A stretch of 64,000 nucleotides of DNA from a virus (IMGVR_UViG_3300010373_001364:112116-176115); one strand, 5' to 3'; positions 5,315-60,819 are shown, counted from the stretch's first letter. A program made the numbers and translations. The notes: a model not told the origin generated them from the letters alone.

Positions 5315-5327
5315 CATTTGGAGGCAA

Positions 5328-6311
5328 ATGAACATTCTGATTACAGGTGGCGCAGGCTACATCGGCAGTGTTTTGGTCGATTATATTCTTTCGCAGCCTT
5401 GGAAGGTTGCTCAGACGGGTTTTAAGGTTCCTCAAGTCAACATCAGAATCATTGACAACTTGATGTACAAACAAGACGGTTTGATTTATTTCTGTAGCCT
5501 GAAGCACAAGGACTGTTTTGACTTCATCTATGGCGATGTCCGAGACACGGATTTCCTACTCAAGCAAGCTGATTGGGCGGATGTGGTGATCCCCCTTGCC
5601 GCCATCGTGGGTATGCCAGCCTGCGAACGTGATAAGTGTGGTGCGGGTCAAATCAACCAGATGCAAGTTTTTGAACTTGCACACGCTTGTTACAAGACGA
5701 ACAAGAAGATTTTGTATCCAAATACCAACAGCGGTTATGGTCTAGGTCTTGGCACCACATACTGTACCGAAGATACACCACTGACGCCAATTAGCACCTA
5801 CGGCAAGACCAAGTGCGAAGCTGAAAAGGCGGTTCTGGATTGCGGAGGCATTGCTTTCCGCCTTGCTACAGTTTTTGGGGTATCTCCCAGGATGCGATTG
5901 GATTTATTGGTAAATGACTTCACTTACAAGGCGGTCACGGACGGTTATGTTGTGCTTTTTGAGAAGGACTTCAAGAGGAACTACATCCATGTTCGCGACG
6001 TAGCAAAGGCGTTTTGCCACATGATTACGGATTATGACCAGCACAGGGGGCAGGTGTTCAACATGGGTCTTTCAGATGCCAATTTGAGTAAATTGGAGTT
6101 GTGTCAAAAGATCAAGGAACAGGTTCCGGGTTTCTCAATCCAAGTAGATGAGATTCGTAAAGACCCGGACCAAAGGAACTACATCGTTTCCAACGAGAAG
6201 ATTGAGAAGACAGGCTGGATTCCAGAAGTCAGTTTAGAAGCAGGGATCGCAGAACTCATCAAGGCTTACAAGATCATCCCCAATGTGTCAAAGAAGTACG
6301 CCAATGTGTGA
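5328..6311 (+). CDS. NAD-dependent nucleotide-sugar epimerase/dehydratase (extended SDR)
   Basis: GGAGG RBS then ATG 5328. N-terminal Rossmann motif MNILITGGAGYIGS. Catalytic YxxxK (STYGKTK). 328 aa. Confidence 0.8.
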   Translation: MNILITGGAGYIGSVLVDYILSQPWKVAQTGFKVPQVNIRIIDNLMYKQDGLIYFCSLKHKDCFDFIYGDVRDTDFLLKQADWADVVIPLAAIVGMPACERDKCGAGQINQMQVFELAHACYKTNKKILYPNTNSGYGLGLGTTYCTEDTPLTPISTYGKTKCEAEKAVLDCGGIAFRLATVFGVSPRMRLDLLVNDFTYKAVTDGYVVLFEKDFKRNYIHVRDVAKAFCHMITDYDQHRGQVFNMGLSDANLSKLELCQKIKEQVPGFSIQVDEIRKDPDQRNYIVSNEKIEKTGWIPEVSLEAGIAELIKAYKIIPNVSKKYANV

Positions 6312-8089: not shown

Positions 8090-9037
8090 ATGGGTTGCGA
8101 GAAACTGAATGAAAACGAAGTTGCTGAAGTAATTACCAAAAATGTAGCACTCGAAGAAGCAAAAAAAGTCGATGAGAGGTGGTCGAAAGCCATTGAGTCT
8201 ATCGGCAAAATTAAAGATAAGTTCAAGCGTTCTTGTATTTGTCTCCTGTTGGAAAACCAGCGGTTAATGAACGAGGCTTCCACTTCTACGGAGATGAACT
8301 CTCCAGAGACTAAGAAGAAGCTCATCGATCTGGCTGCGGCGGTGTACCCTAATCTACTTGCCTGGAATCTTGTTTCTGTCCAACCCCTTGTTGGTCCTAC
8401 CGGATTGATCTATCATCTGAGTCGTAGAATTAGCCCGGTCAACAATGAACCGATGTTGACCATTGATTCTCAAGATATTGTTGCCAGGACGAGAAGGCTG
8501 AAGAGGCAGGTTTGTGACGATTTCGGTCCCAAGGATGTAGCACAGGCGGTAATCGATGACTTGGATACCGAGGTCTTGAAAGACCTGTCCAACAACTGCG
8601 CAACGGTTGGCTGCGTCAACCTGAAGGCTTACAAATCAGACAAGGCTGTTCGTTTGGCAGAGGCTTTGGAAAGTGTGATTAAAGACGCCAAGGAGAAGTT
8701 TAACGAGAAGATGTTTGAAGGATGCGAGCCGAACTGGATGGTCGTGAATGATAAACTTCACAGGCGTTTGAAGCCTGCCTTTGATTCTCTTGATCTTTGC
8801 AAAAACCTCTCTATATACCCTCACAAGGGTGTTGAGGGCGTTTTGATCGGGCGCAAGGGGGAATCTTACATGGACAGCGGTTATGTACTTTCGCCCTATG
8901 TTCCGTTCACCTTGACGCCAGCCATCAATTTTGGTATTTTCGGGTTGCTCACCCGTTACGGCAAGAAGCTGCTCCCGAATGGGGCATCTTATTACAGTCG
9001 GGTGACAGTCTTCGATGACGTTCCCGAAGAGGAGTGA
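8090..9037 (+). CDS. T4 gp23/gp24-family (major-capsid-type) protein, unusually short (315 aa)
   Basis: Strong local resemblance to the T4 gp23 N-terminal region: ENQ...NSPE and AAAVYPNLLAWNLVSVQPLVGPTGLIYHL versus T4 IPNLIAFDICGVQPMNSPTGQVFAL. Much shorter than gp23 (521 aa). Confidence 0.4.
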   Translation: MGCEKLNENEVAEVITKNVALEEAKKVDERWSKAIESIGKIKDKFKRSCICLLLENQRLMNEASTSTEMNSPETKKKLIDLAAAVYPNLLAWNLVSVQPLVGPTGLIYHLSRRISPVNNEPMLTIDSQDIVARTRRLKRQVCDDFGPKDVAQAVIDDLDTEVLKDLSNNCATVGCVNLKAYKSDKAVRLAEALESVIKDAKEKFNEKMFEGCEPNWMVVNDKLHRRLKPAFDSLDLCKNLSIYPHKGVEGVLIGRKGESYMDSGYVLSPYVPFTLTPAINFGIFGLLTRYGKKLLPNGASYYSRVTVFDDVPEEE

Positions 9038-9038
9038 A

Positions 9039-10616
9039 ATGGATAGAAGGCTTGATGTACTTTTTGTTCACCCAGGAGATGCACATCTGCTGTATCAGGG
9101 TTTGAGCAACAAGTTTAGCGCCATAGAGACACCTACTTGGTGTCTCTTGCTGGCACAGTCTTGTCGCTCTAAAGGCTTTGGCGTAGCCATCTTGGACTGC
9201 GACGCTGAACGCCTGAATTACGAGCAGGCGGTGACTCGCATTAAGGAAGCCAATCCGCGATTGGTGTGCTTTGTCGTTTATGGACAAAACCCGAATGCTG
9301 GCACCACAAAGATGACTGGTGCTATTGGAGTTGCGGCTAAATTGAAGACGGAATACCCAGAGTATCCCGTCTGCTTTGTCGGTTCGCACACCAGTGCCCT
9401 CCCCAGAGAGGTGCTTGCCTACCCGTTCGTAGACTTTGTTCTGCTGAACGAGGGCGTCTATGCCTTGAGGAACCTTCTGGCGACCGATCTGAAGACCGAT
9501 CTTCAGAGTATTAAGGGCATTGGTTGGAAGGAAAGCGCTCCACTTAAGATGCACGCTGATCAGTGGTGCTGCGAGTCGAATAAGTGTCTCTGTGTTTTGA
9601 ATGCACCAGAGCGTGTGGTTCCAAATGAGTTGATGGATGTGGACTTGCCGGGTTCTGCCTGGGATTTGTTGCCCTACAACAAGCAGCCCTTTGATCTTTA
9701 TCGCTCCTGTAACTGGCACGCGGACTTCCATGAAGACAAGAGGCGTCCTTATGCTGCCATCTACTCTTCCTTGGGGTGCCGCTTCAAATGCGACTTCTGC
9801 ATGATCAATATCTTGAATCGTGTAGATAACAGCGACGGCGTGAACGCTGCTCACTCTCCGAACATGAGATTTTGGTCGCCTAATTTCATGTTGAAGGAGT
9901 TTGACAAGTTAGTCAATGCCGGGGTTACGACCATCCGCATCAGCGACGAGATGTTCTTTCTTGACAAGAGATACTTTGAGCCATTGCTACAAGGATTGGT
10001 AGATCGTGGTTATGGTAAGGAACTGCTGATGTGGGCGTATGCTCGCGTGGATACGGTGCGAGCCAAATACCTTGACTTATTCAACAAGGCTGGTGTGAAG
10101 TGGCTGGCGCTGGGCATTGAGGCTGCCGACCAGAAGATCCGCAAAGAGATTACCAAGGGCACCTATGAAGAAGTAGACATCCGAGAGATCGTCAAGCAAA
10201 TCGCAGATTCTGGAATCAGTACGATCTCCAACTACATCTTCGGTCTGCCGGATGACGACTACAACTCCATGAATGCCACCCTTGACCTGGCGTCGGAGTT
10301 GAATACAGAGATGGCGAATATGTACCCTTGCTTTGCTCTGCCGGGTTCGCCTCTCTATTATCAAGCAGGGCAAAAAGGATGGGCGTTGCCTCAAACATTC
10401 GAGGCTTGGTCCTTCCACTCTTACGAATGTTTGCCTCTTCCTACTAAGCACTTGAGTGCTGCGGAGGTATTACGCTTCCGTGATCGTGCTTGGGATATGT
10501 ACTTCAATCGTCCTGAGTACCATAAGGTAGTTGAGGACAAGTTCGGTAAGGTGGCAGTAGATCACATCAAAGAAATGGCGTCCATCAAACTCAAAAGAAG
10601 GCTGTTAGGAGATTGA
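9039..10616 (+). CDS. Cobalamin-binding radical SAM enzyme (class B radical SAM, methyltransferase-like)
   Basis: GAGGAG RBS then ATG 9039. N-terminal B12-binding-like Rossmann region (VLFVHPGD, AILDCDAE). Radical SAM cluster motif CRFKCDFC (Cx3Cx2C). 525 aa, typical of B12-rSAM. Confidence 0.8.
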   Translation: MDRRLDVLFVHPGDAHLLYQGLSNKFSAIETPTWCLLLAQSCRSKGFGVAILDCDAERLNYEQAVTRIKEANPRLVCFVVYGQNPNAGTTKMTGAIGVAAKLKTEYPEYPVCFVGSHTSALPREVLAYPFVDFVLLNEGVYALRNLLATDLKTDLQSIKGIGWKESAPLKMHADQWCCESNKCLCVLNAPERVVPNELMDVDLPGSAWDLLPYNKQPFDLYRSCNWHADFHEDKRRPYAAIYSSLGCRFKCDFCMINILNRVDNSDGVNAAHSPNMRFWSPNFMLKEFDKLVNAGVTTIRISDEMFFLDKRYFEPLLQGLVDRGYGKELLMWAYARVDTVRAKYLDLFNKAGVKWLALGIEAADQKIRKEITKGTYEEVDIREIVKQIADSGISTISNYIFGLPDDDYNSMNATLDLASELNTEMANMYPCFALPGSPLYYQAGQKGWALPQTFEAWSFHSYECLPLPTKHLSAAEVLRFRDRAWDMYFNRPEYHKVVEDKFGKVAVDHIKEMASIKLKRRLLGD

Positions 10617-33119: not shown

Positions 33120-33427
33120 AGAGTCAGTAGGATTCAGCGAAGCTCTGGGGGCGAGATAAGAAGTTGCGGAGTTTCATGGAGCAGTCTATGAAGTCGAAGC
33201 GTCCCTTCGACACACTGACAGGGGTGCCGTGTGGCGATTAAGCTACAGAACCGACAACCAGTTGATGACCAAAGCAACTCTGCTGACCGCAGCAGGCGAG
33301 CGGCAAGGTGCGCGTGCCTTGCGGGGCATAGGACGGGTTGTTGGGGGCGGTCACGGTGCCAGGCTCTAGTCGTGTGGGGAACACGGTCCTTTGGGTGAAC
33401 CAAAGCACAATCTTCGCTGTACGCACA
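33120..33427 (+). ncRNA. candidate structured non-coding RNA (unidentified class)
   Basis: ~340-nt interval with no ORF of 60 aa or more on the + strand. GC markedly higher than surroundings. Several stem-loops readable by eye (GTCGAAGcgtccCTTCGAC, GCAAGGtgcgcgtgCCTTGC, CTTTGGgtgaaCCAAAG). Promoter-like element upstream, intrinsic terminator at the 3' end. Confidence 0.3.
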
Positions 33428-33462
33428 GTCCTGCCGCATATCTTTGCGGCAGGACTTTTTTA
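33428..33462 (+). terminator. rho-independent terminator
   Basis: Perfect 11-bp stem GTCCTGCCGCA/TGCGGCAGGAC, loop TATCTT, then TTTTTTAT. Confidence 0.65.
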
Positions 33463-35401: not shown

Positions 35402-38275
35402 ATGGCGACAGTTATCATCCTCACGTCTGGAACCAGTTGGACAGTACCGTCTGACTTTAATCCCAACAACAACACCATCGAGGCTATCGGCGCTGGTGGT
35501 GGTGGCGGACAAGGTGCGTTTGGCACCAATCAAGCGGGCGGTGGCGCAGGTGGCGGTGCTGAATACAGGAAATTTACAAACTTCGATCCTCAAGGTGCCA
35601 CATTTATACCATACCAAATTGGTAGCGCCGGTATTGGTGATACGACAGGGACTGGCGGCGGTAGTGGCGGGGCTACCATATTTAACACCACGACTTTGAA
35701 GTCTGCGGGCGGCTTAGGTGGCGGTGCTGGCTCTGGTGTTACACAGGGTAATGGCGGTCAGCCCGCTTTTGGAGGTTCGGGCGGTATCAGAATTGGCGGC
35801 GGTGCTGGTGGTTCTGGTAATCCAGGCGGCGGCGGCAATGGTGCTGGTGGCGGCGGTGGTGGAGGTGCGGGAGGACCAAACGGTGCCGGTGTTAATGGCA
35901 CTGGCTGGAGCGGCACAGGAACCACGCCAATCGGCAATGCCGGCGGTGCTGGCGATAATGGTAATGTCGCTGGTGGTTCAGGTGGATTGGCAGGTAATCA
36001 GAATGCTGGAGGCACGGGTGGTAATGGCACAAGTTGGACTGCTACTATTGGTGGTGCCACAGCGGGCGCTGGTGGCGGTGGTGGTGGAGGCTATGGTGGC
36101 GTAAATGATACGGCTGCTTTTGCCGGCGGAAGAGGCGGTAGCTATGGTGCCGGCGGCGGCGGTGGTGGCGGTGGTGGTACTTTTAGTTCTACACCGGGCA
36201 ATGGAGGCAACGGCGGTCAGGGCGTTATTGTAATTACCTACACGCCGTTAACTAGCTACAGCGTTACGAGTTCTGGTGGTGCAAATCTAAAGGGTAGCGC
36301 GGGCGTATCCGTAAAATATAAATACACAGGTGCCGGCAATGGTAGTCTGGGAGGAACCAGTCCATTTAAGGAGCTAGTTAATGCTCCCATGTCTGGGAAG
36401 GCGGGATTTGGCAGTAGTGCAGGAGCATCGGTGATATTCAATTATGTTGCTAGTGGTGGCTTGAATTCTGGCAGTAGCGCTCGCGGTGCTGACAGTTATT
36501 CAGAATATGCCGCTTCAGGCGACATGAAGTTGAGTGGCAGTGCTGGCGTTATCTCTCCTTCCTTCCGTTATGCCGCCAGTGGTGGTTTGAACTCTGGTGG
36601 TTCCAGTGATAGAACCATTGATCTAAAGTACGCAGCAAGTGGCGGCTTAGGTTCCAACATCTCTTCCAATGCTGCCATCGGAGGTTATGAGCCTATTGGT
36701 GGCTTAAATATCGGCAATAGTGCCAGAGCTACTGTCACCTATCGTTACACTGCCAGCGGTGGTCTGGGTTCGGGTGGATCTTCTAAAGATAATGCATACG
36801 ACTCCGCTGAAGGCTCAGGAGGTGTCATCCTTGATGGGCGCGCGGACGCTGCTCTTGTATTCAACTACGAAGCCTCTGGAGGCTTGGGCTGCGGTGGTAA
36901 AGCCCCTACTCAGATCAGTGGAAACATCATTACAACCTTTACTTGGAATGTGAGTGAAGGTGTTTTAAGGAACTGGCGCGTAGAGGGTAAATGTGTATCA
37001 GTTAATCACCCTTGCCCGCCGACAAGTAATCAAGACTCAGGTTGTGCCAGTGGCAACACCATGCAGTTCATGATGACGGTCGCGGCGCACAGTCTTACTG
37101 ACCTTTGCCAGAAGTTACAAGCACGCGGTTGGACCGGACCAATCAAGAAGATTCAGGTATGGTCGCAACCAACTAACAGATCAGACTGGTCGTCAACCAC
37201 CGATCCTTCTTGTAATACTCTCAGTACGGTTGATTTCAGTAAAGTACCAGCGTGTATCGGCGGGTCCACTGGTTCTGGCAGTTCTAGTGGATATGATTTT
37301 ACTGTAGATCAAAATTTGGCTGTGACCGGCAAAGTCACTGCCAGTTTGATCTTCGATGTCAACTATTCATACACAATGTCGGGTGGTTTGGGTGCTGGTG
37401 GTTCAGCCGTTAAGCCGCCAACCGTCTCCAGCCACTTCTCTTATACTGCATCGGGTGGTCTTGGTGCGGGCGGTGGTGCGCGGGCTGCTTCTCCTCAATT
37501 CTTCTACTATGTCGCCTCTGGTGGTCTGGGTAGTGGTGGAAGTAGCATTGTGTTTCCGAGTGACTATGGTCTTATTTCGGCTTCTGGTAAAACCTCCATG
37601 TTGGTGTCCGACGTGGGGATCACCTTTGGCTATCAAGCTGCCGCCACTTTAATTCCAAGCACGGGTCAAGTGGCGGCTTCCTGCTGTAGTGCCCTGAACC
37701 TGCCACAGGTCATCTTTGCTAGGCACGATCTGAATCGTTCCTATACACTAACGAACTTCTTGAATGTTAATGGTTTCACCTTGCCACAAGTGTTAAATCT
37801 AATGTATAGTAGACAGAGGAATGCTTGGTACTCTAATTCACAGTTCCGAGGCACTTCAGTTGACCAAACTGAACAACAGGTGTGGAACGTCATCTTCGAG
37901 TTCGGATGCTTGACGGAGAATGGATTGCTGGATGTGCCATCGGATGTGTGGGGTTTCTCCACTATGGTCCGTAGGAGAAGCTTAACTAATTCAAGAGTCG
38001 AGGTTACTAGATTGGTTTTGGAGTTTGATCCTACACAGATTTGTACCGCCCCCGGCTTGTTGAAGTTTGATTTCTCTTTTGATGTCAATTTGCTGATAAC
38101 TTCACCAGCCGTTGTGAGGGCTGTGGTGTTCTTAGACGAGTTGGGTGCTTTTGGCGGACCAAACTTCATAAGTAACCCAACTGCTTCCTTCGAGGTGAGT
38201 GCTTCGTTCCCCGATGTTGGTGTCGGGATGTTTGATCAATCCGCCCCTCTACAAAAAATACTGTTGGGTGTCTGA
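35402..38275 (+). CDS. Glycine-rich tail fibre / receptor-binding structural protein (957 aa)
   Basis: N-terminal 300 aa is poly-Gly/Ala/Asn low complexity (GAGGGGGQGAFGTNQAGGGAGGG...). It is followed by 8 or more copies of a (Y)xASGGLGxGGS repeat and a Cys-containing C-terminal globular region. Composition typical of phage fibres. Confidence 0.7.
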   Translation: MATVIILTSGTSWTVPSDFNPNNNTIEAIGAGGGGGQGAFGTNQAGGGAGGGAEYRKFTNFDPQGATFIPYQIGSAGIGDTTGTGGGSGGATIFNTTTLKSAGGLGGGAGSGVTQGNGGQPAFGGSGGIRIGGGAGGSGNPGGGGNGAGGGGGGGAGGPNGAGVNGTGWSGTGTTPIGNAGGAGDNGNVAGGSGGLAGNQNAGGTGGNGTSWTATIGGATAGAGGGGGGGYGGVNDTAAFAGGRGGSYGAGGGGGGGGGTFSSTPGNGGNGGQGVIVITYTPLTSYSVTSSGGANLKGSAGVSVKYKYTGAGNGSLGGTSPFKELVNAPMSGKAGFGSSAGASVIFNYVASGGLNSGSSARGADSYSEYAASGDMKLSGSAGVISPSFRYAASGGLNSGGSSDRTIDLKYAASGGLGSNISSNAAIGGYEPIGGLNIGNSARATVTYRYTASGGLGSGGSSKDNAYDSAEGSGGVILDGRADAALVFNYEASGGLGCGGKAPTQISGNIITTFTWNVSEGVLRNWRVEGKCVSVNHPCPPTSNQDSGCASGNTMQFMMTVAAHSLTDLCQKLQARGWTGPIKKIQVWSQPTNRSDWSSTTDPSCNTLSTVDFSKVPACIGGSTGSGSSSGYDFTVDQNLAVTGKVTASLIFDVNYSYTMSGGLGAGGSAVKPPTVSSHFSYTASGGLGAGGGARAASPQFFYYVASGGLGSGGSSIVFPSDYGLISASGKTSMLVSDVGITFGYQAAATLIPSTGQVAASCCSALNLPQVIFARHDLNRSYTLTNFLNVNGFTLPQVLNLMYSRQRNAWYSNSQFRGTSVDQTEQQVWNVIFEFGCLTENGLLDVPSDVWGFSTMVRRRSLTNSRVEVTRLVLEFDPTQICTAPGLLKFDFSFDVNLLITSPAVVRAVVFLDELGAFGGPNFISNPTASFEVSASFPDVGVGMFDQSAPLQKILLGV
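36430..37545 (+). repeat. intragenic tandem-like repeats encoding the ASGGLG(S/A)GGS motif
   Basis: Motif recurs at ~36440, 36570, 36630, 36750, 36870, 37375, 37445 and 37510. Confidence 0.5.
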
Positions 38276-38276
38276 T

Positions 38277-38594
38277 ATGAGTAGAAAGAAAGTATATGGT
38301 ATGTTGGGTCTGGCGACGTTCGCCATGATGCAGATTTCCGCTTGCTTTGTCGCTGGCGTGAAGACCGAAGGCATTCTTAGCGTCTTCTTCTTTGCGCTGG
38401 GCGGCATCAGTTGTCTTTTCGGATTAGCTTTGGATTTCCTTCTTCTAATCATTGCGGTAGATGTCTTTGGAGGCGTCTTTGGGGTGATGGCTGAAAGTTT
38501 GGCTAAGAAGCAGGCTGGTCAAGACGACGAGGATGAGGACGAAGAGGCTGACGAGATAGAGGTAGTTGAAACCGCAGAGGATACACCAGAGTAG
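38277..38594 (+). CDS. small membrane protein with two TM helices and a poly-acidic C-terminal tail
   Basis: ATG 1 nt after the tail-fibre stop. TMs LGLATFAMMQISACFVAGV and ILSVFFFALGGISCLFGLALDFLLLIIAV. Tail QDDEDEDEEADEIEVVE. Confidence 0.5.
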   Translation: MSRKKVYGMLGLATFAMMQISACFVAGVKTEGILSVFFFALGGISCLFGLALDFLLLIIAVDVFGGVFGVMAESLAKKQAGQDDEDEDEEADEIEVVETAEDTPE

Positions 38595-38626
38595 ACTTTG
38601 GAATGACGTTGGTGTAGCATCTCTTT

Positions 38627-39592
38627 ATGAGGGTTCAATACCGCAGCTTTTCTACCACCAGATCATTCGGGGTAGAGGGAGAATACACCGATTTCGGGAT
38701 TGACCAAGAAGAGATCGCCTGGATCTTGGAGGTCAATGATCCCAATCACGTCGTCTCTGTAACTCCTTACAACTTGAGCGACGGTTCCTGCTGGCACGTC
38801 AAGAGCGACTCCAGTTGCGGCTGGGAAGTAGCCAGCTATAAGGGCAGCGGCGTTGCCGACCTCAACAACATCGCCGGATGCCTGGAGACAGTTGCCTCTC
38901 AGGGTGGTTTAATCAATTCTGACTGTGGCTTACACGTTCACGTTGATGTCTCCGATTTCACAGAGGGAGACATCGCCAGAATAGCTGCTCACTGGATGCG
39001 CATCGAGCCTGTCGTCTTTACTGCCGTTCCGAAACACAGAGTCAGTAACGTCTACTGCAAGATGCTTCGTCGTAGGTACATCTGCAAGATCGGCAAAAGT
39101 CCCGCCGTGTGGAAGGATACAGATTTCTACCAAAAAGTGAAACCCCATGACTACAACTGCAAAAGAGATCGCAGGGTTTCACTAAATATCTGCAACTTTG
39201 TAAAAAGTGTAGTGGAACCTGAGTTCAATCGTAAAACAGTTGAACTCAGGTTGCCAGAAATGTCACCCAAGGCTGAAGATGTCAAAAATTGGGTGAAGTT
39301 CTTTGTCACCTTTGTAGAAAACGCGGTGAAGATACCAATACCGGGTGACATGAGTTCGGTCGGTCTGCCCAAAGCTCTGTGTATTATGGGGTTACGGGCT
39401 GTGGAAGGGGAGGGATTGATACTCAGCGAAGGTCTTTTCAGGACGAAAGAATGGTTCCTTTATCGCATTTTGAAGCACGCCAAGAACAAGAAACTATGTG
39501 GCGATGCCATAACTATGTTGAATAATATGTGGTGCCCTCTGCGTAAATACTGCCTTGACAAGAGATCAGGGGTGTTTACTGAAACGATTTAG
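38627..39592 (+). CDS. Glutamine-synthetase-like amidoligase (Amidoligase_2-type)
   Basis: GS/GCS2-fold signatures: FGVEGEY (GxExE metal-binding strand), CGLHVHVDVS (GxHxHxS as in the GS motif GSGMHCHMS), TVELRLPE (E.R). ~320 aa as in the phage amidoligase family. Confidence 0.55.
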   Translation: MRVQYRSFSTTRSFGVEGEYTDFGIDQEEIAWILEVNDPNHVVSVTPYNLSDGSCWHVKSDSSCGWEVASYKGSGVADLNNIAGCLETVASQGGLINSDCGLHVHVDVSDFTEGDIARIAAHWMRIEPVVFTAVPKHRVSNVYCKMLRRRYICKIGKSPAVWKDTDFYQKVKPHDYNCKRDRRVSLNICNFVKSVVEPEFNRKTVELRLPEMSPKAEDVKNWVKFFVTFVENAVKIPIPGDMSSVGLPKALCIMGLRAVEGEGLILSEGLFRTKEWFLYRILKHAKNKKLCGDAITMLNNMWCPLRKYCLDKRSGVFTETI

Positions 39593-39605
39593 GGATGGAG
39601 TAGTC

Positions 39606-40583
39606 ATGCGAGCTTACCGTGTCTTTATAGCTGTTATCCAGTGTGCCTTTTTTTTCCAGGCGTGCCTTTTTACCGCTAAGCTGCCCGCCGATGGAGTCAA
39701 TCGTCCTGTCGTCTGTAGGACTGCTGATGTTGGAGAAAAACTTCAAACCGCGAAGTCTCGGATAGGCGAAATTCGTGGCTTGGTTCTTAACCTACAACAA
39801 AACCAACCTCAGCCGCAACAACCCGCCCAACCTCAGCTTCAGTGGAATAGATACACTACCGACAACTTTGAAGTTTTGAGTCTCGATGATGCACAGGGTA
39901 AGTACCTTTGCAGCAATATCGAATACATCAAGACGTGGACTCTTTGGCGCTGGGGCATAAAGGATTTCGACTTCCCTTCTGTTAAGAACTCGAAGGGTGA
40001 CACCGTGAAGGTGAAGTGCAAATTGATCTGCGTTCCTAGTGCCGATCTCTACGAGAAACTCTTTAACAGGAAGACTCCTAGTTGGCGGGTCGAGGTTAAA
40101 GATGGAGTTCCAGAGTACACTGTCTGGTTCATCACAGAGGGCACCAAATGGAACACCAATCTGCCCGTCCTTCTGACCGAAGTTGTCATTGCCAACTTTG
40201 AAGCTAGTACCGGCAGCAAATTCCCCGTATGGTGCCATAGAGGAATGAGTGTCCTCAATGGCAGAATAGAAGACATCAGAGCTAGGCTTTCTTTGGTGGG
40301 CGGCTTTGATTCCAAGTCACTTTTCGCCATGACACCCGAAGCTTACACCAAGCTAGATGATACCAAAAAGGCTACTTTCGATGCTCAAGCGGCTTTCTTT
40401 TGTTTGTGGGCTAGACAAGAGTTCAATGGCAAGGTGTTCCTTGACTTCCTTGGGGGTGCTATGATCAACCCTGAATACTCCCTGCGGCTTTTCAATATCG
40501 CAACCTGTGCAGACTGTGACTCTAGGGTGAAACTCTATGCGTCCAAGCTGGCTACGGGTTCTGATTATTACTTTTCTTGGTGA
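39606..40583 (+). CDS. hypothetical protein with N-terminal hydrophobic anchor and Gln/Pro-rich linker
   Basis: VFIAVIQCAFFFQACLF, then QQNQPQPQQPAQPQLQ, then a ~250-aa domain. No motif recognised. Confidence 0.5.
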   Translation: MRAYRVFIAVIQCAFFFQACLFTAKLPADGVNRPVVCRTADVGEKLQTAKSRIGEIRGLVLNLQQNQPQPQQPAQPQLQWNRYTTDNFEVLSLDDAQGKYLCSNIEYIKTWTLWRWGIKDFDFPSVKNSKGDTVKVKCKLICVPSADLYEKLFNRKTPSWRVEVKDGVPEYTVWFITEGTKWNTNLPVLLTEVVIANFEASTGSKFPVWCHRGMSVLNGRIEDIRARLSLVGGFDSKSLFAMTPEAYTKLDDTKKATFDAQAAFFCLWARQEFNGKVFLDFLGGAMINPEYSLRLFNIATCADCDSRVKLYASKLATGSDYYFSW

Positions 40584-40620
40584 TCTTCCACATTTGTTGA
40601 AAGATTGCTAGGATAAGTGC

Positions 40621-40833
40621 ATGGTAGATGAAATTGCCGCGCAAAAACTGAGAACGAGATACGCACACGTTCATCCCTGGATCTTCAATAGGTCTTGTAT
40701 CTATGCGAAGAGTTTAGGGGATCTTTTCGACATTCTGGAAAGTTTGCCACAGGTTTATCCGATCATCTGGGACGAACAGAAGAGGCAGTGGACAACCGTG
40801 GAGAACCTCTGTTTGCTGAATCTAAAGGAATAG
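40621..40833 (+). CDS. hypothetical protein (70 aa)
   Basis: ATG 40621. Confidence 0.4.
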   Translation: MVDEIAAQKLRTRYAHVHPWIFNRSCIYAKSLGDLFDILESLPQVYPIIWDEQKRQWTTVENLCLLNLKE

Positions 40834-40835
40834 TC

Positions 40836-41453
40836 GTGAACCCACTGCAAGAATACTATTTGCGCAACAATGTTCGCGCACCATATGTGTTTTTCGGCAG
40901 TAGCCAAGTGATCCTCCACAATCCTCAAAGGATAAGGTCTAGCGATAGGTACAGACTTTTTGACATCAGAGCCGTCAATAAGGAGGGTAACGATGGTGTC
41001 AACATAGGCAAGTTTGATATGAGCTTTGCCACACCGGACAAGACAGGCGGGTCTTACTTTACGAAAGACGATGAATGGTTTGTTTATTGGCATGAGTATG
41101 AACAGCACATCCTTGACAAGATAAAGGAGTGGCGTAATTCTGATTGGTATCCCCTTGGAGACTCCGATGAGTTAAAGATGGCTTGTTGGGAGTTACTCTC
41201 CTATACGCGGGATTCGCGATTTGCTGAACTACCTCTTTCTCTGCTGGACTTGAATTACAAGATATTAGACTGTAACCTCTCATTTGGAACGAGAGTGGGA
41301 TTGCTTAACAGCATTGTCGAGTGGCTTACATCTTGTGCCGACGTGTCGTGTAATTCTGTTTACAAAAGTATTGTGTCAACTTGGTGTGAATTGGTCAACA
41401 TGATCAATTCTCCAAGATACGCACACTGGCTGGTGAGGTTGTCAAAGGGGTGA
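40836..41453 (+). CDS. hypothetical protein (205 aa, GTG start)
   Basis: AAGGAA then GTG 40836, 2 nt after the upstream stop. An alternative longer ORF starts at 40695. Confidence 0.45.
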   Translation: MNPLQEYYLRNNVRAPYVFFGSSQVILHNPQRIRSSDRYRLFDIRAVNKEGNDGVNIGKFDMSFATPDKTGGSYFTKDDEWFVYWHEYEQHILDKIKEWRNSDWYPLGDSDELKMACWELLSYTRDSRFAELPLSLLDLNYKILDCNLSFGTRVGLLNSIVEWLTSCADVSCNSVYKSIVSTWCELVNMINSPRYAHWLVRLSKG

Positions 41454-41456
41454 ACC

Positions 41457-42455
41457 TTGGTGGATTTAGTGCTTGTTGACTGCTCTGACCTTGCCGAGGG
41501 CGCTGATGTTACGCTGTTAGAGGATATCAAAGAAAAACCCTCGATTGGTCTTACTTGTGACGTTCTAGAGGAGCGTGCCTTCTTCATGGAGGAAGAATTC
41601 GCCACTTTTAACTGTCTAGAATCCTTTTACCAAAACTGCTGTGAGTTTAGGCTAATCTCCCAGATCCCCTGGATGGATCACTACGCTTGGGCAATCTTCA
41701 ATACCCACAACTTAAAGATGGAGCGAGGAGATGTTGCCAGGAAGACACATGGCAAGTATGCCTTCATCTCTCAGAATTTTGCTTTCGAGCTTTCTGAAGG
41801 CGAGAATTTTGGTTACTTCCAGTTAATCTGCATACCAGAACAGGTCTTTCACGATAGTGCTGTTTATCACAAGTTTGACTTATTGACCTTTATGGTTTAT
41901 CGCAATTGCAAGACGGCAAGGTTTATGGCGATTCCCCACCTTGTCACGCTCCACCCGAAGGCAGAACATACCTATGTCCCGATGGTCCCTGGTCAGAGTT
42001 TGCAACTCATCGTCTCCGATTCTGAAGATATTGAGGTTGCCGAGGACCACTTTGAGCTTGTGAGCGGTTCTCAAAAACTATTTACTTTGGGTAGGGACGG
42101 TAAACCTGACCGACTAAAAGCTGCTACCTACGCTTGCCGCGATCAGGAGTGTTCACTCTTCATTGAGAACAAGTCCATTATTGTGCCTAAGATGTGTGTA
42201 CAAGACGACGGCGTGTATGTTAGTATATTGAAGCCGGTCAGCGATGCGGTCATCTACACGGAAGGCGTGGACCGTATCCAGATCACCTGTCCCGGCGCAG
42301 AGAAGTGGGCATGGGATGAGGAGGCGGTTGATATAACCGGAGCTTCTGACGAGATTGAGATTCGTCTCTTAAAGAAGATAAACAGTCTCTGTCTACAATA
42401 CGATAACGACATCTGGTGGGTGTTCGCAAGCAAGAATATGGTAGGAAAGATATGA
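41457..42455 (+). CDS. hypothetical protein (332 aa)
   Basis: TTG/GTG start directly after the upstream stop. Acidic. Confidence 0.5.
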   Translation: MVDLVLVDCSDLAEGADVTLLEDIKEKPSIGLTCDVLEERAFFMEEEFATFNCLESFYQNCCEFRLISQIPWMDHYAWAIFNTHNLKMERGDVARKTHGKYAFISQNFAFELSEGENFGYFQLICIPEQVFHDSAVYHKFDLLTFMVYRNCKTARFMAIPHLVTLHPKAEHTYVPMVPGQSLQLIVSDSEDIEVAEDHFELVSGSQKLFTLGRDGKPDRLKAATYACRDQECSLFIENKSIIVPKMCVQDDGVYVSILKPVSDAVIYTEGVDRIQITCPGAEKWAWDEEAVDITGASDEIEIRLLKKINSLCLQYDNDIWWVFASKNMVGKI

Positions 42456-43966
42456 AGAGATATGGGGCGGTGAAGGTAAAAAACCCTTCCACCAATGGAC
42501 ATACAGTCCGACTACTCCCACTCCAATCGTTTGAGATAGTCTGTACAAGGTGTGACCCTGCCGACCGCTTCAATGCCCTGGTCGTCGGTGATTCCTTGCT
42601 TATGACGGAAACTCTTGAACAAGACCACAACATCACCTTCAGGTTCCAGCAGAAATACGATACTACAGAGTGGGTAAAGATTTCAGACCTCTTCATGGGC
42701 AACGTCTTGCTCACCAAGAGCATTGGTGGTGTTAAGGAGAAGCTGCGGCTCTGTGTCTACTGTACTGATGCCAAATCCCCCAAGGATAACGTACTGACTG
42801 TCATCAACCCTGATGATGTTCTGGTGAAGATGGAACCTTATCAGATACTCCATATCGTCAGCTACGATGAGCAGATGAGGTGGAGTCTTGACAACTGCGA
42901 AGGATTGAAGTGTGTTCGTTGCGAGACGGTAATTAACGACTTTCAGAAGATTTATGATCAAGACGCTCTGTTTTGCCCAGAACCAAGGAGTCATGGTTTT
43001 TCCATGAATAAGAACTTGGGTGAACACCCCGACCAGTTCTTTACGAATGAGGTCATGGGTGCCAGAGGTTTGACAACCGAATACCATTTCTGGTCCTGCC
43101 TTACAGCCGCTCAAATCAATCGGATGTACTCCGCCTCCAATGGCACTTATTCGCTGGGTACGATTGAGTTAAAGGGTGAATCTGAGAAGTGCGGGGCGAT
43201 TCGCAAGATGGAGTTGATGCTCGGTGTTCGGGGCAAGAAAAAGATCAACTTGGAACACTTTAAGGCGATTTACTCCCTGGCTAAGTGCTGGAATGAGAGG
43301 TCTTTGAGTTATTTGCGGCATAGTCTTTTTAACCCAAGGGTGAATGAGAACCTTGATGTGTCAGACGCCGATGGTTGGTTCTACGTTGAAATACCAAATC
43401 CGTCCGTATATTTCAACGACTTCAGCGATGATGGTTCGTGGAAGTTTCAAGAGGCGGACGATACCGTTATATGTCATGAACTCAGGGAGAGGTACATTAA
43501 CGGCAATAAGGTGCAGAGGTTTTTGATTACTGGCATCACCAATCAGCGAGAAGCCGAACTAATGAGTCTTGGCTCTGTTCTCTTTAGTTGTTCGGAAGGT
43601 GATGCTGACAAGCAGATGCGGTTAAGCTTCTGGAAGATACCAAATGACCAAACTCGACCTCTCTCACAGGAAATGCTTCCGCGTCGAAGCGGCAGGTCTA
43701 GGCTTATCGAGAAGGTGGAGATCGAATTGGAGATAGTAAGTGATGGTGTCTTGGCGAGCGAGGATACCATTACTCCCCTTTGTTGCATAGACGAGAATGA
43801 TATTGACTACACCGAGTTCGGAGAAGAATATGTCTCACACCTCATCTCAAAAAAAAAGATACCTCTCCTACTAGGGGTGTCAAGCAGTACGACAAGTGCA
43901 AACAACAACGCCGCTCTTGTGCAAGTAGGGACCGAGATGTTCAGCGTCAGGAATATCGCCTCATGA
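42452..43966 (+). CDS. hypothetical protein (504 aa)
   Basis: ATGA-coupled. Last gene before a strong terminator. Confidence 0.55.
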   Translation: MKRYGAVKVKNPSTNGHTVRLLPLQSFEIVCTRCDPADRFNALVVGDSLLMTETLEQDHNITFRFQQKYDTTEWVKISDLFMGNVLLTKSIGGVKEKLRLCVYCTDAKSPKDNVLTVINPDDVLVKMEPYQILHIVSYDEQMRWSLDNCEGLKCVRCETVINDFQKIYDQDALFCPEPRSHGFSMNKNLGEHPDQFFTNEVMGARGLTTEYHFWSCLTAAQINRMYSASNGTYSLGTIELKGESEKCGAIRKMELMLGVRGKKKINLEHFKAIYSLAKCWNERSLSYLRHSLFNPRVNENLDVSDADGWFYVEIPNPSVYFNDFSDDGSWKFQEADDTVICHELRERYINGNKVQRFLITGITNQREAELMSLGSVLFSCSEGDADKQMRLSFWKIPNDQTRPLSQEMLPRRSGRSRLIEKVEIELEIVSDGVLASEDTITPLCCIDENDIDYTEFGEEYVSHLISKKKIPLLLGVSSSTTSANNNAALVQVGTEMFSVRNIAS

Positions 43967-44028
43967 AGGAGGCAAAGCGACGGGCGAAGCTAGAACGCAA
44001 ACACCGTCGCAAGGCGAAGCACTAGCGA

Positions 44029-53087: not shown

Positions 53088-53420
53088 ATGTCCGCAACAG
53101 TTGATAAAATCATGGCGAAAAGAGAAGAGAAGCTCAAGGCGGCAATCAAGGCACTTGGCGGCGGCAAGAACAAGATCGCTGAGTCCTTGAAGGCTAAGAA
53201 GATCAAGGGCGTCCGTGGCTCTACAGAGGATTGTCCCTTCGCCCACTACGCCGGCAAGGTTTTTCCCAAAGCTTCTTGTGTTGAGGTGGACGTTGACACC
53301 ATCTCTGTCGGTTTCGACAATGGTGAGTTCATTGACTTGAATCTTCCGAAGGCTGTCACCGCCTTTATCGAGGCTTTCGATGATGGTGAGTACGACTTCC
53401 TCGCCAAAGAAGAGGAGTAA
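53088..53420 (+). CDS. hypothetical protein (110 aa)
   Basis: Lys-rich N-terminus, acidic C-terminus. Confidence 0.5.
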   Translation: MSATVDKIMAKREEKLKAAIKALGGGKNKIAESLKAKKIKGVRGSTEDCPFAHYAGKVFPKASCVEVDVDTISVGFDNGEFIDLNLPKAVTAFIEAFDDGEYDFLAKEEE

Positions 53421-53421
53421 G

Positions 53422-54942
53422 ATGTACGACTTGTCAATCAAGATGGCAGGGGAGTGGGAAGGGCACCATCTCATCAATGGTAAGTTTCCCAAGACGAAGT
53501 GTGAAGTTTCTAAGGTCAACCCGGCTAATGGGAAGCATCTGGGTTTCTTCCCCTACGCCACTCCCCAGCAAGTTGCTGATGCCGTTTGCGTTGCGCATAA
53601 CGCTTGGCATCAGTGGAAAAAAATGAGTCGAGTCAAAAGGTCTGATCTCTTCTTTGAACTCGCCAAGCTCGTCCAGCGTGACCAAAAGATCCTTGCTGAG
53701 ATTATCTCTCTGGAAACGGGTAAGAACCTCAACGAGGCGCACGCTGAGGTTGTGGAGTCTCTTCATATGTGCCAGTGGGTTGCCGCCCAAGGACGACAAC
53801 CCTGCGGTGACTGGATGGCTTCTGAAATTGCCGCTAAGGATGCTTATGTCATTCGTAAACCGCGTGGTGTGGTAGCGGTCATTAGTCCTTGGAACTTCCC
53901 TCTCGCCATTGGAAGTTTCTGGACAACTGGTCCGGCGCTTCTTGAGGGCAATGTGGTCGTCCACAAGCCCTCTGAGTTGACGCCTTTCACTGCCGAGTAT
54001 GCAGCCCGGCTCTATGTGGAGGCGGGTTTTCCGGCTGGGGTGTATAACCTCATTCATGGTGATGGCTCTGTAGGTGCTACCCTTGCCAGTATGGAGTTCG
54101 TCAGATCCATATTGTTTACGGGTAGCGCAAAGGTGGGACAACTGATTCGTGGTGTTTGCGCCAGTAGATTCGACCGCAATTGCAGCACCGAGACGGGCAG
54201 CAAGTCTGCCACCATCCTTTTCGCTGATGGCAATAAGGAGTTGGCACTTGAGGCAATGCTCGCCAGCGCATTCAAGTTGTCTGGTCAAAGATGTGTTTCT
54301 TCTGGTCGTCTGTTGATTCAAGAAGGTATCTACGACGACTTCTGTGAGAGATTTGTGTCACTTGTCAGGGAAGTTGCCACCTGTGGTGATCCATTTGAGT
54401 CACCAGTTCCCTATTATGGACCTTTGATTAACGAGAAGCAGCGACATCGTGTTGAGGAATACAACAACCTCGCAACCGGACTCGATGGCATCAAGGTGTT
54501 ACTCCAGGGTGCCCGGCTGGACCGCCCCGGTTACTACCTGACTCCGCACGTCTACCAAGCCGCGTGGGAGAGTGAGTGGACAGGGGCTATCCGTCGCAAG
54601 ATACTCACCGAGGAGGTGTTTGGACCCCATGTGGCGCTGATCCCCTTCCGCGATGTTTACGATGCTGTGAACATCTATAACGACACCGAGTATGGTTTAG
54701 CAGTTGGTGTCATCACCAGCGATTTCCGCAAGATGCGGATCATGCGGGAGGAGTGTAACGCTGGTATGATCTACATGAATGGTGGCTCAATTGCTGCGGA
54801 ATCACACCTTCCATTTGGGGGAGTCAATAAATCCGGCAATGGAATGAAGACGGCAGCAGGCACCTACAGGACAGTCACCGATGAGGTAGCCGTTACCGTG
54901 AATTACGAACATGGCATAACTTGGGCACAAGGTATGCACTGA
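53422..54942 (+). CDS. NAD(P)-dependent aldehyde dehydrogenase family protein
   Basis: 506 aa. ALDH hallmarks VISPWNFP, GSAKVG, FKLSGQRCVSSGRLL (catalytic Cys), ESHLPFGGVNKSGNG (glutamate/EL(P)FGG motif). Confidence 0.85.
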   Translation: MYDLSIKMAGEWEGHHLINGKFPKTKCEVSKVNPANGKHLGFFPYATPQQVADAVCVAHNAWHQWKKMSRVKRSDLFFELAKLVQRDQKILAEIISLETGKNLNEAHAEVVESLHMCQWVAAQGRQPCGDWMASEIAAKDAYVIRKPRGVVAVISPWNFPLAIGSFWTTGPALLEGNVVVHKPSELTPFTAEYAARLYVEAGFPAGVYNLIHGDGSVGATLASMEFVRSILFTGSAKVGQLIRGVCASRFDRNCSTETGSKSATILFADGNKELALEAMLASAFKLSGQRCVSSGRLLIQEGIYDDFCERFVSLVREVATCGDPFESPVPYYGPLINEKQRHRVEEYNNLATGLDGIKVLLQGARLDRPGYYLTPHVYQAAWESEWTGAIRRKILTEEVFGPHVALIPFRDVYDAVNIYNDTEYGLAVGVITSDFRKMRIMREECNAGMIYMNGGSIAAESHLPFGGVNKSGNGMKTAAGTYRTVTDEVAVTVNYEHGITWAQGMH

Positions 54943-58406: not shown

Positions 58407-58489
58407 GATTGCGGAACTTGTTGTCAGACAACGACTTCCATCCCAGGTTTTGCGATGGATCTGGTTTTCTGAGTTTTCGTGCAGGTGTT

Positions 58490-58867
58490 ATGGAGAAGGA
58501 TCATTTCGTCTTTGTGTATGGCACGCTTAAGCGTGGTCAGAGTAACCACGGCTGGCTGTGCAAGTCCTACTTCGTTAAAGAAGCCAGGACCGCCAAGAAG
58601 TACCTTCTGTACGACCTTGGACCTTATCCCTGCCTGGTGGCTGCACCACACGGCAAGGGCAAACACATCAACGGCGAACTGTATCAGGTTACAGAGAGTG
58701 TTCTCCGGGGTCTTGACACCCTTGAGGGCGTAGGGTACGGACTTTACGAGCGCGTAAGGATAAAGCTGCTCGACACAAAAGAACCAGTCTGGGGATATCT
58801 CTATCTCCGAGACGTATCTCGACTACAAGAGGCAGGAGACTCTTGGAGCGAAAGTGAGGATAAATGA
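58490..58867 (+). CDS. Gamma-glutamyl cyclotransferase-like (AIG2/GGCT fold) protein
   Basis: FVYGTLKRGQSNH (YGSL/TLxxG GGCT signature). Conserved Glu-containing C-terminal half (GELYQV). Confidence 0.75.
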   Translation: MEKDHFVFVYGTLKRGQSNHGWLCKSYFVKEARTAKKYLLYDLGPYPCLVAAPHGKGKHINGELYQVTESVLRGLDTLEGVGYGLYERVRIKLLDTKEPVWGYLYLRDVSRLQEAGDSWSESEDK

Positions 58868-60819
58868 TAGGTTTGGCGATTACGGCTGGTGTGATTCTTT
58901 TTGTGGTCTTGTTTGTCGCGTGGCTGTTTATCCGCGTGATCGGCAACGACGAGGTTGGAGTCGTGGAGCGCTGCTGGTCTGCTGTTGGCTCCTTAAAGGA
59001 GGGCGACATCATTGCCCTCAAGGGTGAAGCTGGCTATGAGGGCGATGTTCTGCGTGGTGGTCTTCATTTCGGTTTGTGGCGCTGGCAGTTCAGCGTCCAC
59101 AAGACCAAGCTGATTACCATTCGCCAGGGGAAGATTGGTTACATCTTTTCCCGCGTTGGTAAGCCTCTTGAGCCGGGTCAAACACTTGCCAAGGTAGTCT
59201 CTTGTAATGACTACCAGAACGTCAAGTCGTTCCTTGAGGCGGATGGTCAAAAAGGTCGTCAGCGTGCCATCCTTCGTGAAGGTGTGTATGCTATTAACCT
59301 CGCCGCTTTCAGTGTGATCACTGAGGATAGTGTCTACTCTATCATCAGAGATAAGAACCTTGACGAGTGGAAGAACGCTCTATCCTCCATTCACGGATTC
59401 GATCCGGTAGTGGTCGGTGGTGGTCACGATAACATTGCCATTGTCACCGTCCACGATGGTCCTTCTTTGCCTCCTGGCGAGATCATTGCCCCGGCAGTTG
59501 GCACCAATCGTGAGGATGTGGGCTATCACAACAACTACCAAGACATTGAGAAGTTCTTGTCTGCTGGTGGTATGCGTGGTCTTCAGTACGCAACCCTCAT
59601 CGACGGCACCTACTTCATCAACCGCTGGTTCGCTACGGTCGAGTACATTAACAAGGAAGTGGTCGAGATCGGCAACGTCGGCGTTGTCGTTAGCTACTAC
59701 GGCAAGGCTGGCAAGGACACCAGCGGTACGACCTTCCGCCACGGCGAGCGTGTCCATGAGGGCGAGCGTGGTGTATGGGAGACGACTCTGGGACCGGGCA
59801 AGTATCCGTTCAACACCTATGCCGGCAAGATCATTCGCGTACCTACGACGAACTTCGTGCTGCACTGGATCACTGGCAAGAGCGAAGGTCACAGATACGA
59901 TGAGAGCCTGAAGTCTATCGAGTTGATCACCAAGGACGCTTACGAGCCGTCTCTTCCACTGTCCGTGGTGGTTCACATCGACTACCAAAAGGCTCCGAAC
60001 GTCATCCAACGCTTCGGCGATGTCAAGCAGCTTATCACCCAGACGCTTGACCCGCTACTGTCTGCTTACTTCCGTGATGTGGCTCACCAGAAGACCATGC
60101 TGGAACTGGTTCATAGCCGTGATGAAATTCAGAAGCAGGCGCGTGACGAGTTGCGTACCAAGTTCCGCGACTTTGATATTGAGTGCGTTGATGTTTTGAT
60201 CGGCAAACCAGATTCCACCGGGGATGACGGTAAGATCGAGAGCTTGCTTGAGCAGCTTCGTTTGCGTAACTTGTCGATTGAACAGATCAAGACCTTCAAT
60301 CAACAAGAAGAGGCTGCTAAGAAGCAGCAGTCTTTGAACGAAGCTATCGCCAAGGCTGAGATGCAGACATCTCTGTCTGAGTCGAAGGTGAAGATCGAAA
60401 TCGCCGCGAATGAGGCTGATGCTGAACTTCAGCGTGCCCACAAGGACGCCGAGAAGACTGTTGTCCTTGCCAAGGCGCGTTCTGAGCAGTCCATCCTTGA
60501 AGGTCAAGGCGATGCCAAGAAGATCAACAGCGTTGGTCTTGCCGAGGCTGATGTCCTTCGCCAGAAGATCGCCTCCTTCGGTGACAGTCAGTTGTATGCC
60601 CTGAGCGTGATTGCTTCCAGTCTTTCCCAGAGCAAGCAACCGTTGGTGCCGAGCATCATGAGTGGCGACGGCAAGCACAATAACATGCTTGACGTGTTGA
60701 TGACCTTGCTTGTCAGTGAGAAGTCGGGCATCCGCTCCTTGGGGAACAACGATCCCAGGATCGTTGAGACTGCTCATTCCCCCAAGGTCGCTGATGCAGT
60801 TTCTGTCAGCAAGAATTGA
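58864..60819 (+). CDS. SPFH/band-7 domain protein (flotillin/YqiK-like) with N-terminal TM helix
   Basis: ATGA-coupled. TM LAITAGVILFVVLFVAWLFI. SPFH core. Long Ala/Glu/Lys coiled-coil (EAAKKQQSLNEAIAKAEMQ...AEADVLRQKIASFG). Confidence 0.7.
   Translation: MIGLAITAGVILFVVLFVAWLFIRVIGNDEVGVVERCWSAVGSLKEGDIIALKGEAGYEGDVLRGGLHFGLWRWQFSVHKTKLITIRQGKIGYIFSRVGKPLEPGQTLAKVVSCNDYQNVKSFLEADGQKGRQRAILREGVYAINLAAFSVITEDSVYSIIRDKNLDEWKNALSSIHGFDPVVVGGGHDNIAIVTVHDGPSLPPGEIIAPAVGTNREDVGYHNNYQDIEKFLSAGGMRGLQYATLIDGTYFINRWFATVEYINKEVVEIGNVGVVVSYYGKAGKDTSGTTFRHGERVHEGERGVWETTLGPGKYPFNTYAGKIIRVPTTNFVLHWITGKSEGHRYDESLKSIELITKDAYEPSLPLSVVVHIDYQKAPNVIQRFGDVKQLITQTLDPLLSAYFRDVAHQKTMLELVHSRDEIQKQARDELRTKFRDFDIECVDVLIGKPDSTGDDGKIESLLEQLRLRNLSIEQIKTFNQQEEAAKKQQSLNEAIAKAEMQTSLSESKVKIEIAANEADAELQRAHKDAEKTVVLAKARSEQSILEGQGDAKKINSVGLAEADVLRQKIASFGDSQLYALSVIASSLSQSKQPLVPSIMSGDGKHNNMLDVLMTLLVSEKSGIRSLGNNDPRIVETAHSPKVADAVSVSKN

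Follow-up and report, generated by a model that had tools for sequence, protein, structure and literature searches.

What does a glutamine-synthetase (GS)-like ligase do in a tightly packed string of phage genes, and does it work together with them? The question is raised by a 64,000-nucleotide stretch of viral DNA (IMGVR_UViG_3300010373_001364:112116-176115; hereafter the window), in which an Amidoligase_2 gene, open reading frame (ORF) 38627, is followed by ORFs 39606, 40621, 40836, 41460 and 42452, each named by its first position. Enzymes of the GS/GCS2 superfamily spend adenosine triphosphate (ATP) on turning a carboxylate into an acyl-phosphate, to which an amine is then joined. The GS-like/GCS2-type Amidoligase_2 ligases of phages and bacteria were reportedly predicted by Iyer, Abhiman, Burroughs and Aravind in 2009. 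Amidoligases of the PF12224 family are widespread in phages, and to our knowledge, as far as a limited literature search goes, no member has a demonstrated substrate.

A first-pass annotation of the window had proposed that the six genes form a single peptide-tagging or small-molecule-synthesis system led by the amidoligase. Comparison with related phages points to a different answer, which we hold with somewhat better than even confidence: the string is a conserved co-directional segment of the backbone of a clade of large and huge uncultured phages, the amidoligase is an optional passenger in it, and there is no biosynthetic operon. A limited literature search found no description of this deeply conserved array.

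A conserved array with a variable slot

Iterated profiles of each window protein were used to search 89 loci (the best 80 IMG/VR loci and nine earlier ones). With the loci of the reverse test below and after duplicate removal, the comparison covered 40 distinct arrays, all from related large or huge phages that are uncultured, on contigs of up to 572 kilobases (kb). All 34-35 loci whose amidoligase is full-length and at least 29% identical, on contigs of up to 527 kb, share the same order: the C-terminal domain of the large protein of ORF 35402, the amidoligase, and homologues of ORFs 39606, 40621 and 40836, with homologues of ORFs 41460 and 42452 sometimes following. The order is unchanged in relatives whose amidoligase is 34-57% identical, and all of these neighbours are missing at the 55 more distant amidoligase loci. 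The DnaJ, glycosyltransferase and PhoH genes upstream of the array are syntenic too, and the conservation is therefore that of a collinear phage-clade backbone and is not specific to the amidoligase.

The amidoligase lies between a small membrane protein (ORF 38277) and the exported protein of ORF 39606, a slot that could be scored in 37 of the 40 arrays. Both an amidoligase and a sigma-70-like gene were found there in 21 arrays, the amidoligase only in nine, the sigma gene only in two and neither in five. In total, the slot contains an amidoligase in 30 of the 37 arrays and a sigma-70-like gene in 23, and seven have no amidoligase. The slot of the window holds the amidoligase alone.

The comparison was also run in reverse, with the 39606 family as the anchor. 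Of the 36 IMG/VR loci retrieved in this way, nine have no amidoligase in the slot. Eight of these nine keep the 35402 C-terminal domain together with homologues of ORFs 39606 and 40621, and most keep the small membrane ORF; the ninth (L106) has no detectable upstream large-protein domain. The gaps at six of the nine are 0-290 nucleotides (nt) long, insufficient for another gene. After reduction to 27 distinct arrays, this set, which is not biased toward the ligase, has an amidoligase in 19. Because the amidoligase is missing from some arrays that are otherwise kept, we regard it as an optional occupant of a fixed slot.

Two further observations concern the slot. The sigma-70-like gene, of the extracytoplasmic function (ECF) type with r2 and r4 regions, lies directly 3' of the amidoligase in most relatives (L007-L044, L092-L127); no sigma gene follows the amidoligase in the window, where the only sigma-like ORF is a weak match at 62057-62677. 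On the 572-kb IMG/VR contig (L104), one of the nine loci without an amidoligase, an ORF of 387 amino acids (aa) resembling TnpB/OrfB (4407-5570) sits exactly in the amidoligase slot.

The amidoligase

The first-pass assignment of ORF 38627 to the GS-like Amidoligase_2 family was confirmed. PF12224 matches it at 54.5 bits (E 2.1e-14; gathering cut-off 22 bits) over profile positions 75-243 of 245, and PHROG 2443, 'amidoligase enzyme', matches at E 1e-17. A collection of 5.8 billion proteins yielded 144 homologues, with PF12224 found in 120 of 120 among the matches listed. In an alignment of 32 sequences, with identity as low as 26%, the residues R12, G15, E17, E19, W56, K59, D61, C64, G65, E67, C100, H103, H105, E127, R138, N187, E206, R208 and W276 are invariant. 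As all of these family-invariant residues are intact, ORF 38627 is, judged by its sequence, a genuine Amidoligase_2 that adds one more member to a known enzyme family, and the enzyme looks active.

Of the motifs described earlier, G15-x-E17-x-E19 and E206-x-R208 are present as stated; the proposed GxHxHxS is two residues off, the real motif being G101-x-H103-x-H105-x-x-x-S109. The residues of ExE, HxH and ExR are presumably the metal and ATP ligands, as general knowledge of the GS/GCS2 fold would have it. Residues ~236-321 (~85 aa) form a clade-specific C-terminal extension, and matches from outside the clade end near residue 231-240. Among PDB sequences, a profile search turned up no significant solved relative of the amidoligase, megablast of the DNA at 38000-44200 against GenBank phages gave no match, and IMG/VR scans for near relatives of ORFs 38627 and 42452 found none.

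Gene string and terminator

The six ORFs were recovered at the coordinates first assigned to them. Independent gene calls on three public contigs with identical proteins, the longest one used being a 185-kb ENA metagenome contig, agree with them; a further record extends to 214 kb. The operon-like layout described in the first pass also stood: from ORF 35402 through position 43966 the intergenic spacing is -4 to +37 nt, a terminator scan found no strong terminator within 35402-43966, and its top site, at 44028-44052, closes the unit (Table 1). By eye, a promoter-like TTGGAT-17-TATACT follows this terminator, upstream of the next gene. A highly basic 20-aa ORF at 43963-44025 (MKEAKRRAKLERKHRRKAKH) shares an ATGA overlap with the stop codon of ORF 42452, and its own end lies 2 nt short of the terminator hairpin; we list it as doubtful.

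Family searches were largely silent on this string. The five ORFs downstream of the amidoligase and their 82 homologues (87 sequences) have no Pfam or PHROG match, and the five themselves have none in NCBIfam or PADLOC; PADLOC gave no defence or anti-defence match for any array gene. Comparison of all array families with hhalign revealed no relationships between them, that is, no internal paralogy. No DNA-modification genes (hydroxymethylase, kinase, aGPT-Pplase) were found in the unit.

Table 1. Features of the array in the window and number of the 40 related arrays that contain each
Feature	Coordinates	Strand	Description	Arrays (of 40)
Giant glycine-rich protein (ORF 35402), 957 aa	35402..38275	+	N-terminal part variable; C-terminal ~200 aa form the first array element	39 (C-terminal domain, directly upstream)
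Small membrane protein (ORF 38277), 105 aa	38277..38594	+	Residues 8-76 hydrophobic (2-3 helices); C-terminal tail acidic	
Amidoligase_2, GS-like carboxylate-amine ligase (ORF 38627), 321 aa	38627..39592	+	PF12224, PHROG 2443	32
Sigma-70-like gene				26
Predicted exported pseudo-gluzincin (ORF 39606), 325 aa	39606..40583	+	N-terminal signal/anchor, Q/P linker, ~250-aa zincin-fold domain without zinc ligands	33
Conserved small protein (ORF 40621), 70 aa	40621..40833	+	Motif HPLIF.RS.ERA...G.LFDIL...P..YP..W.	37
Conserved protein (ORF 40836), 205 aa	40836..41453	+		35
Lineage-specific protein (ORF 41460), 331-332 aa	41457/41460..42455	+		4
Ig-like beta-sandwich protein (ORF 42452), 504 aa	42452..43966	+	CxxC...CxxC cysteines invariant; C-terminal third disordered	17
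Doubtful gene, 20 aa, basic	43963..44025	+	Only on near-identical contigs	
Intrinsic terminator closing the unit	44028..44058	+	11-bp stem (6 G-C pairs), 3-nt loop, T run; top site in scan	

Proteins encoded around the amidoligase

The N-terminal hydrophobic segment and Q/P linker noted earlier in ORF 39606 are real. The family comprises 191 representatives at 50% clustering, about 280-310 aa long, and a hydrophobic segment or export signal is found at the N-terminus of 108 of 114 members, often followed by an AQE- or AQD-type sequence. Such sequences are typical of signal-peptidase sites. An AlphaFold2 model of ORF 39606, built with 120 sequences (mean predicted local distance difference test score, pLDDT, 88), has a zincin fold. 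HExxH is present in one of 120 members; the active-site helix of ORF 39606 reads T-E-V-V-I and the family consensus is T-x-x-x-L (T-[E]-V-C-L). In the conserved 'W..RGMS.LN', an Arg occupies the putative third-ligand position, which is Glu in MA-clan enzymes, and we infer that R-G-M-S is the equivalent of the 'W..EGxA'-type third-ligand motif.

On the strength of the model, we describe ORF 39606 as an exported zincin-fold pseudo-peptidase. Without metal ligands it would be a binding or structural protein, and since the gluzincin ligand motif is missing, a peptidase annotation is not warranted. Because it is exported, its place of action would be beyond the cytoplasm, to which an ATP-dependent ligase is confined. 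No relatives were found in 50,697 GenBank phage records, nor in 185,579 GTDB species genomes scanned with one pattern only, and a profile search of PDB sequences with the family gave nothing significant. These proteins form a new and well-populated family: exported, of zincin fold and catalytically dead.

Three more specific ideas about ORF 39606 were tried and set aside. A disulfide between C138 and C266 lacks clean co-variation, as 79 members have both cysteines and 34 have one alone. An ECF sigma/anti-sigma pair, formed with the sigma gene of the slot, was rejected because no cytoplasmic domain precedes the hydrophobic segment of ORF 39606. For a lysis cassette (a holin-like small protein with an exported enzyme), a muralytic domain and the catalytic residues are absent.

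ORF 35402 had been labelled a tail fibre, a label we do not retain. The protein has no Pfam, PHROG or NCBIfam match and no tblastn match in the 50,697 phage records. No tail or other structural genes were recognised near it, and the flanking genes that can be identified are non-structural. Homologues are between 406 and 3240 aa long, with the last ~200 residues alone conserved, and their N-terminal parts carry Laminin_G_3 (three members), TIG, RCC1 or FG-GAP domains, a modular architecture of adhesin type. A profile search of PDB sequences with the C-terminal domain family found nothing significant. Between this protein and the slot, relatives encode a small membrane ORF with one or two helices at the position of ORF 38277, amidoligase-less arrays included; sequence similarity to ORF 38277 itself is limited to the nearest relatives.

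Downstream of ORF 39606, ORF 40621 has no Pfam, PHROG or significant PDB match, ORF 40836 no Pfam, PHROG or PDB match, and ORF 41460 no family or PDB match. ORF 42452 has only nine close homologues; C101, C104, C154, C157 and C175 are invariant. The fold matches of its model (mean pLDDT 59.7, with block means of 70-93 across residues 1-130) are immunoglobulin (Ig)-like only, and it weakly resembles the phage GP4 fibre-tail adaptor and an SU10 tail protein. A chagasin-type (I42) cysteine-peptidase inhibitor was considered for its N-terminal domain and dropped: the resemblance is one of fold only, and a match to the family profile with the NPTTG, GxGG and RPW loop motifs in register was not found. 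An absence of enzymatic folds downstream of the amidoligase, named in the first-pass annotation as an outcome that would count against its system, thus holds for the two modelled ORFs, 39606 and 42452, only. That the other array products are mostly non-enzymatic and partly envelope-directed is the best-supported reading.

Partner genes

The canonical partner of an amidoligase is a class-II glutamine amidotransferase (GATase). The loci were searched for it with an iterated profile built from gp99 of Arthrobacter phage Salgado. A GATase lies within 10 kb of the amidoligase, and adjacent to it, at 14 of the 55 non-clade phage loci; none was found at the 34 clade loci or anywhere in the 64-kb window. 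As 41 of the 55 other phage loci also have no GATase within 10 kb, a solo ligase is not unusual.

Two genes elsewhere in the window had been taken as further members of the amidoligase-associated set. The GGCT-type gene holds up, with a match of ORF 58409-58867 to PF06094 (GGACT) at E 2e-24; it lies 19 kb off in another unit, beyond the 10-kb flanks compared in relatives. ORF 45674-46270 (198 aa, + strand), 6 kb off and after the terminator, shows a C...H...D pattern by eye. The transglutaminase-like peptidase proposed for it found no backing in Pfam, PHROG, NCBIfam or PADLOC; its best match, weak at E 0.007, is to the Rieske domain of ring-hydroxylating dioxygenases, but the ORF lacks the His that should follow the first Cys and bind the metal, and it was not found in more distant relatives. 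The distances, the terminator in between and the unconfirmed identity of one of the two genes speak against the proposed system.

Weighing the explanations

In the backbone segment that we favour, a giant adhesin-like protein is followed by a small membrane protein, the variable slot, the exported zincin-fold protein, the 70-aa protein and the ~205-aa protein and, in some lineages, by the 331-aa and Ig-like proteins. The slot accommodates an Amidoligase_2 gene or a sigma-70-like gene, the two together, or neither of them. By analogy with its superfamily, the ligase would activate a carboxylate as an acyl-phosphate with ATP and then join an amine or amino acid to it, working in the cytoplasm, alone and without a GATase partner; we infer that it acts independently of the downstream genes. 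Several points weigh against this. The amidoligase of this subfamily never occurs outside the array and its position is always identical, which a functional tie to the large protein or the membrane protein would fit as well. ORFs 40621, 40836 and 41460 might still be enzymes of unassigned fold, and confidence in the model of ORF 42452 is only moderate. An amidoligase anchor was used to retrieve half of the loci, which biases the presence counts, and contigs without the gene may be incomplete genomes with the amidoligase elsewhere; among the best 80 IMG/VR matches, no clade-type amidoligase came from such contigs.

The tie to the large protein can be made specific. The amidoligase might modify an array protein, likeliest the C-terminal domain of ORF 35402, by attaching an amine or amino acid through an amide bond to an acidic side chain or to the C-terminus, and so tune a virion or adhesin as a dispensable accessory. 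We consider this unlikely. The ligase lies one small ORF past the 35402 C-terminal domain in all 34-35 clade loci, an adjacency that backbone collinearity explains equally well, and its clade-specific extension, with the invariant W276, could be a recognition module. D945 of ORF 35402, near the C-terminus (window 38225-38239), is Asp in 82% of amidoligase-positive arrays and is replaced (by T or R) in five of the seven amidoligase-negative ones, a weak signal that comes from only about three independent lineages. A Porphyromonas phage has its amidoligase inside a portal-neck morphogenesis module; no result places the 35402 protein in a virion, and the arrays persist without the ligase. A Pup/PafA-like role for ORF 38277 as the modifier, which would call for a conserved Glu or Gln at the C-terminus, fails because the last residue varies (E, E, L, I, E and L in six lineages); it is moreover a membrane protein. 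The stronger form of the idea, in which the amidoligase is a dedicated optional modifier of array products (for example by amidation or amino-acylation of D945) and the array an undescribed surface- or envelope-directed apparatus of huge phages, we judge rather unlikely. If this held, no earlier GS-like ligase encoded by a phage would have been shown to tag one of the structural or adhesin proteins of phages, and action on array proteins would offer a tractable route into the biochemistry of the enzyme family.

Two other explanations extend the ligase's role beyond the array or across all of it. A passage in PMC10580990, with attribution to Iyer et al. 2009, carries the suggestion that phage amidoligase and GATase modify the cell wall and block superinfection. 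An envelope module of this kind, serving superinfection exclusion or surface remodelling, would have the cytoplasmic ligase alter a precursor of the wall or envelope, with the membrane protein and the pseudo-zincin at work in the membrane and periplasm; ORF 38277 and the export signal in nearly all 39606 relatives agree with it. We find it quite improbable, given that the window and clade loci have no GATase, ORFs 35402, 40621, 40836, 41460 and 42452 have no export signals, the family library searches detected no peptidoglycan-related domain and, here again, ligase-less arrays persist. The original proposal, one pathway of six genes acting on virion proteins or DNA, draws on the tight co-directional packing with a single terminator, the retention of the string in the closest relatives and the three ORFs without fold assignment. 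Against it stand the folds of two of the five partners, non-catalytic by model, the export of one of them, the absence of a GATase, of any partner family in 87 sequences and of DNA-modification genes in the unit, the sigma-factor gene inserted after the ligase in most relatives, and phyletic patterns that differ between the amidoligase, ORF 41460 and ORF 42452 (Table 1). We regard such a pathway as very improbable, and the genes surrounding the ligase should not carry a biosynthetic or tagging-pathway annotation.

Other features of the window

Directly after the terminator, 44182-45507 (+) encodes a Pfam AAA_5 ATPase with its own promoter-like sequence, 84% identical in the nearest relative (L004); its match to the NCBIfam 'MadB family AAA-type ATPase' (E 2.5e-32, 112 bits) is far under the cut-off of 475. 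At 46267-46710 (+) lies SmpB (PF01668), the partner of transfer-messenger RNA (tmRNA); ARAGORN and Rfam found no tmRNA or tRNA in the window.

Upstream of the array, positions 33140-33462 (+) form a non-coding stretch of ~320 nt between a minus-strand ORF and PhoH, a possible phage non-coding RNA. Its folding is more stable than that of any of 100 shuffles (z -3.5) and it ends in a terminator with a 12-bp hairpin and a T run; there is no convincing Rfam match, and it was not found at the equivalent place in one relative (L008).

At 8090-10616 (+), the match of a 315-aa ORF to the T4 Gp23 major capsid protein is confined to the first ~40 positions of the profile, and a B12-binding radical SAM enzyme gene lies directly 3' of this ORF and overlaps it. 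The auxiliary and metabolic gene set is unusually rich for a phage, with a thiamine pyrophosphate-dependent enzyme (248-1897), an NAD-dependent sugar epimerase (5268-6311), an aldehyde dehydrogenase (53380-54942, E 1e-117) and an SPFH/Band-7 protein (58864-60819), as well as DnaJ, MazG, PhoH and YbjQ genes.

Comparison with known systems

The predicted fold of ORF 39606 is that of the clan MA gluzincins, such as the M9 collagenase peptidase domain, M30 lugdulysin/hyicolysin and the M1 aminopeptidases. These enzymes have HExxH and a third-ligand Glu, whereas ORF 39606 has neither and no Pfam peptidase model matches it.

Like phage fibres and adhesins with Ig-like or lectin modules, ORF 35402 is giant, glycine-rich and variable in length, and ORF 42452 has Ig-like domains. 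In contrast to those proteins, the conserved part of ORF 35402 is the C-terminus and not the N-terminus, homology to annotated fibres is lacking, and the neighbours are PhoH, DnaJ, glycosyltransferase, AAA ATPase and SmpB genes and not tail genes.

The amidoligases of phage Salgado (gp98/gp99) and the OM43 phages belong to the same enzyme family as ORF 38627, at 23-27% identity; there the amidoligase and GATase genes are adjacent, whereas the GATase is missing from the window and the clade loci. With the PF12224 family as a whole, ORF 38627 shares the size class, the ExE, HxH and ExR residues and the profile match. It differs in having no adjacent GATase, in its ~85-aa clade-specific extension and in its fixed position within a conserved array.

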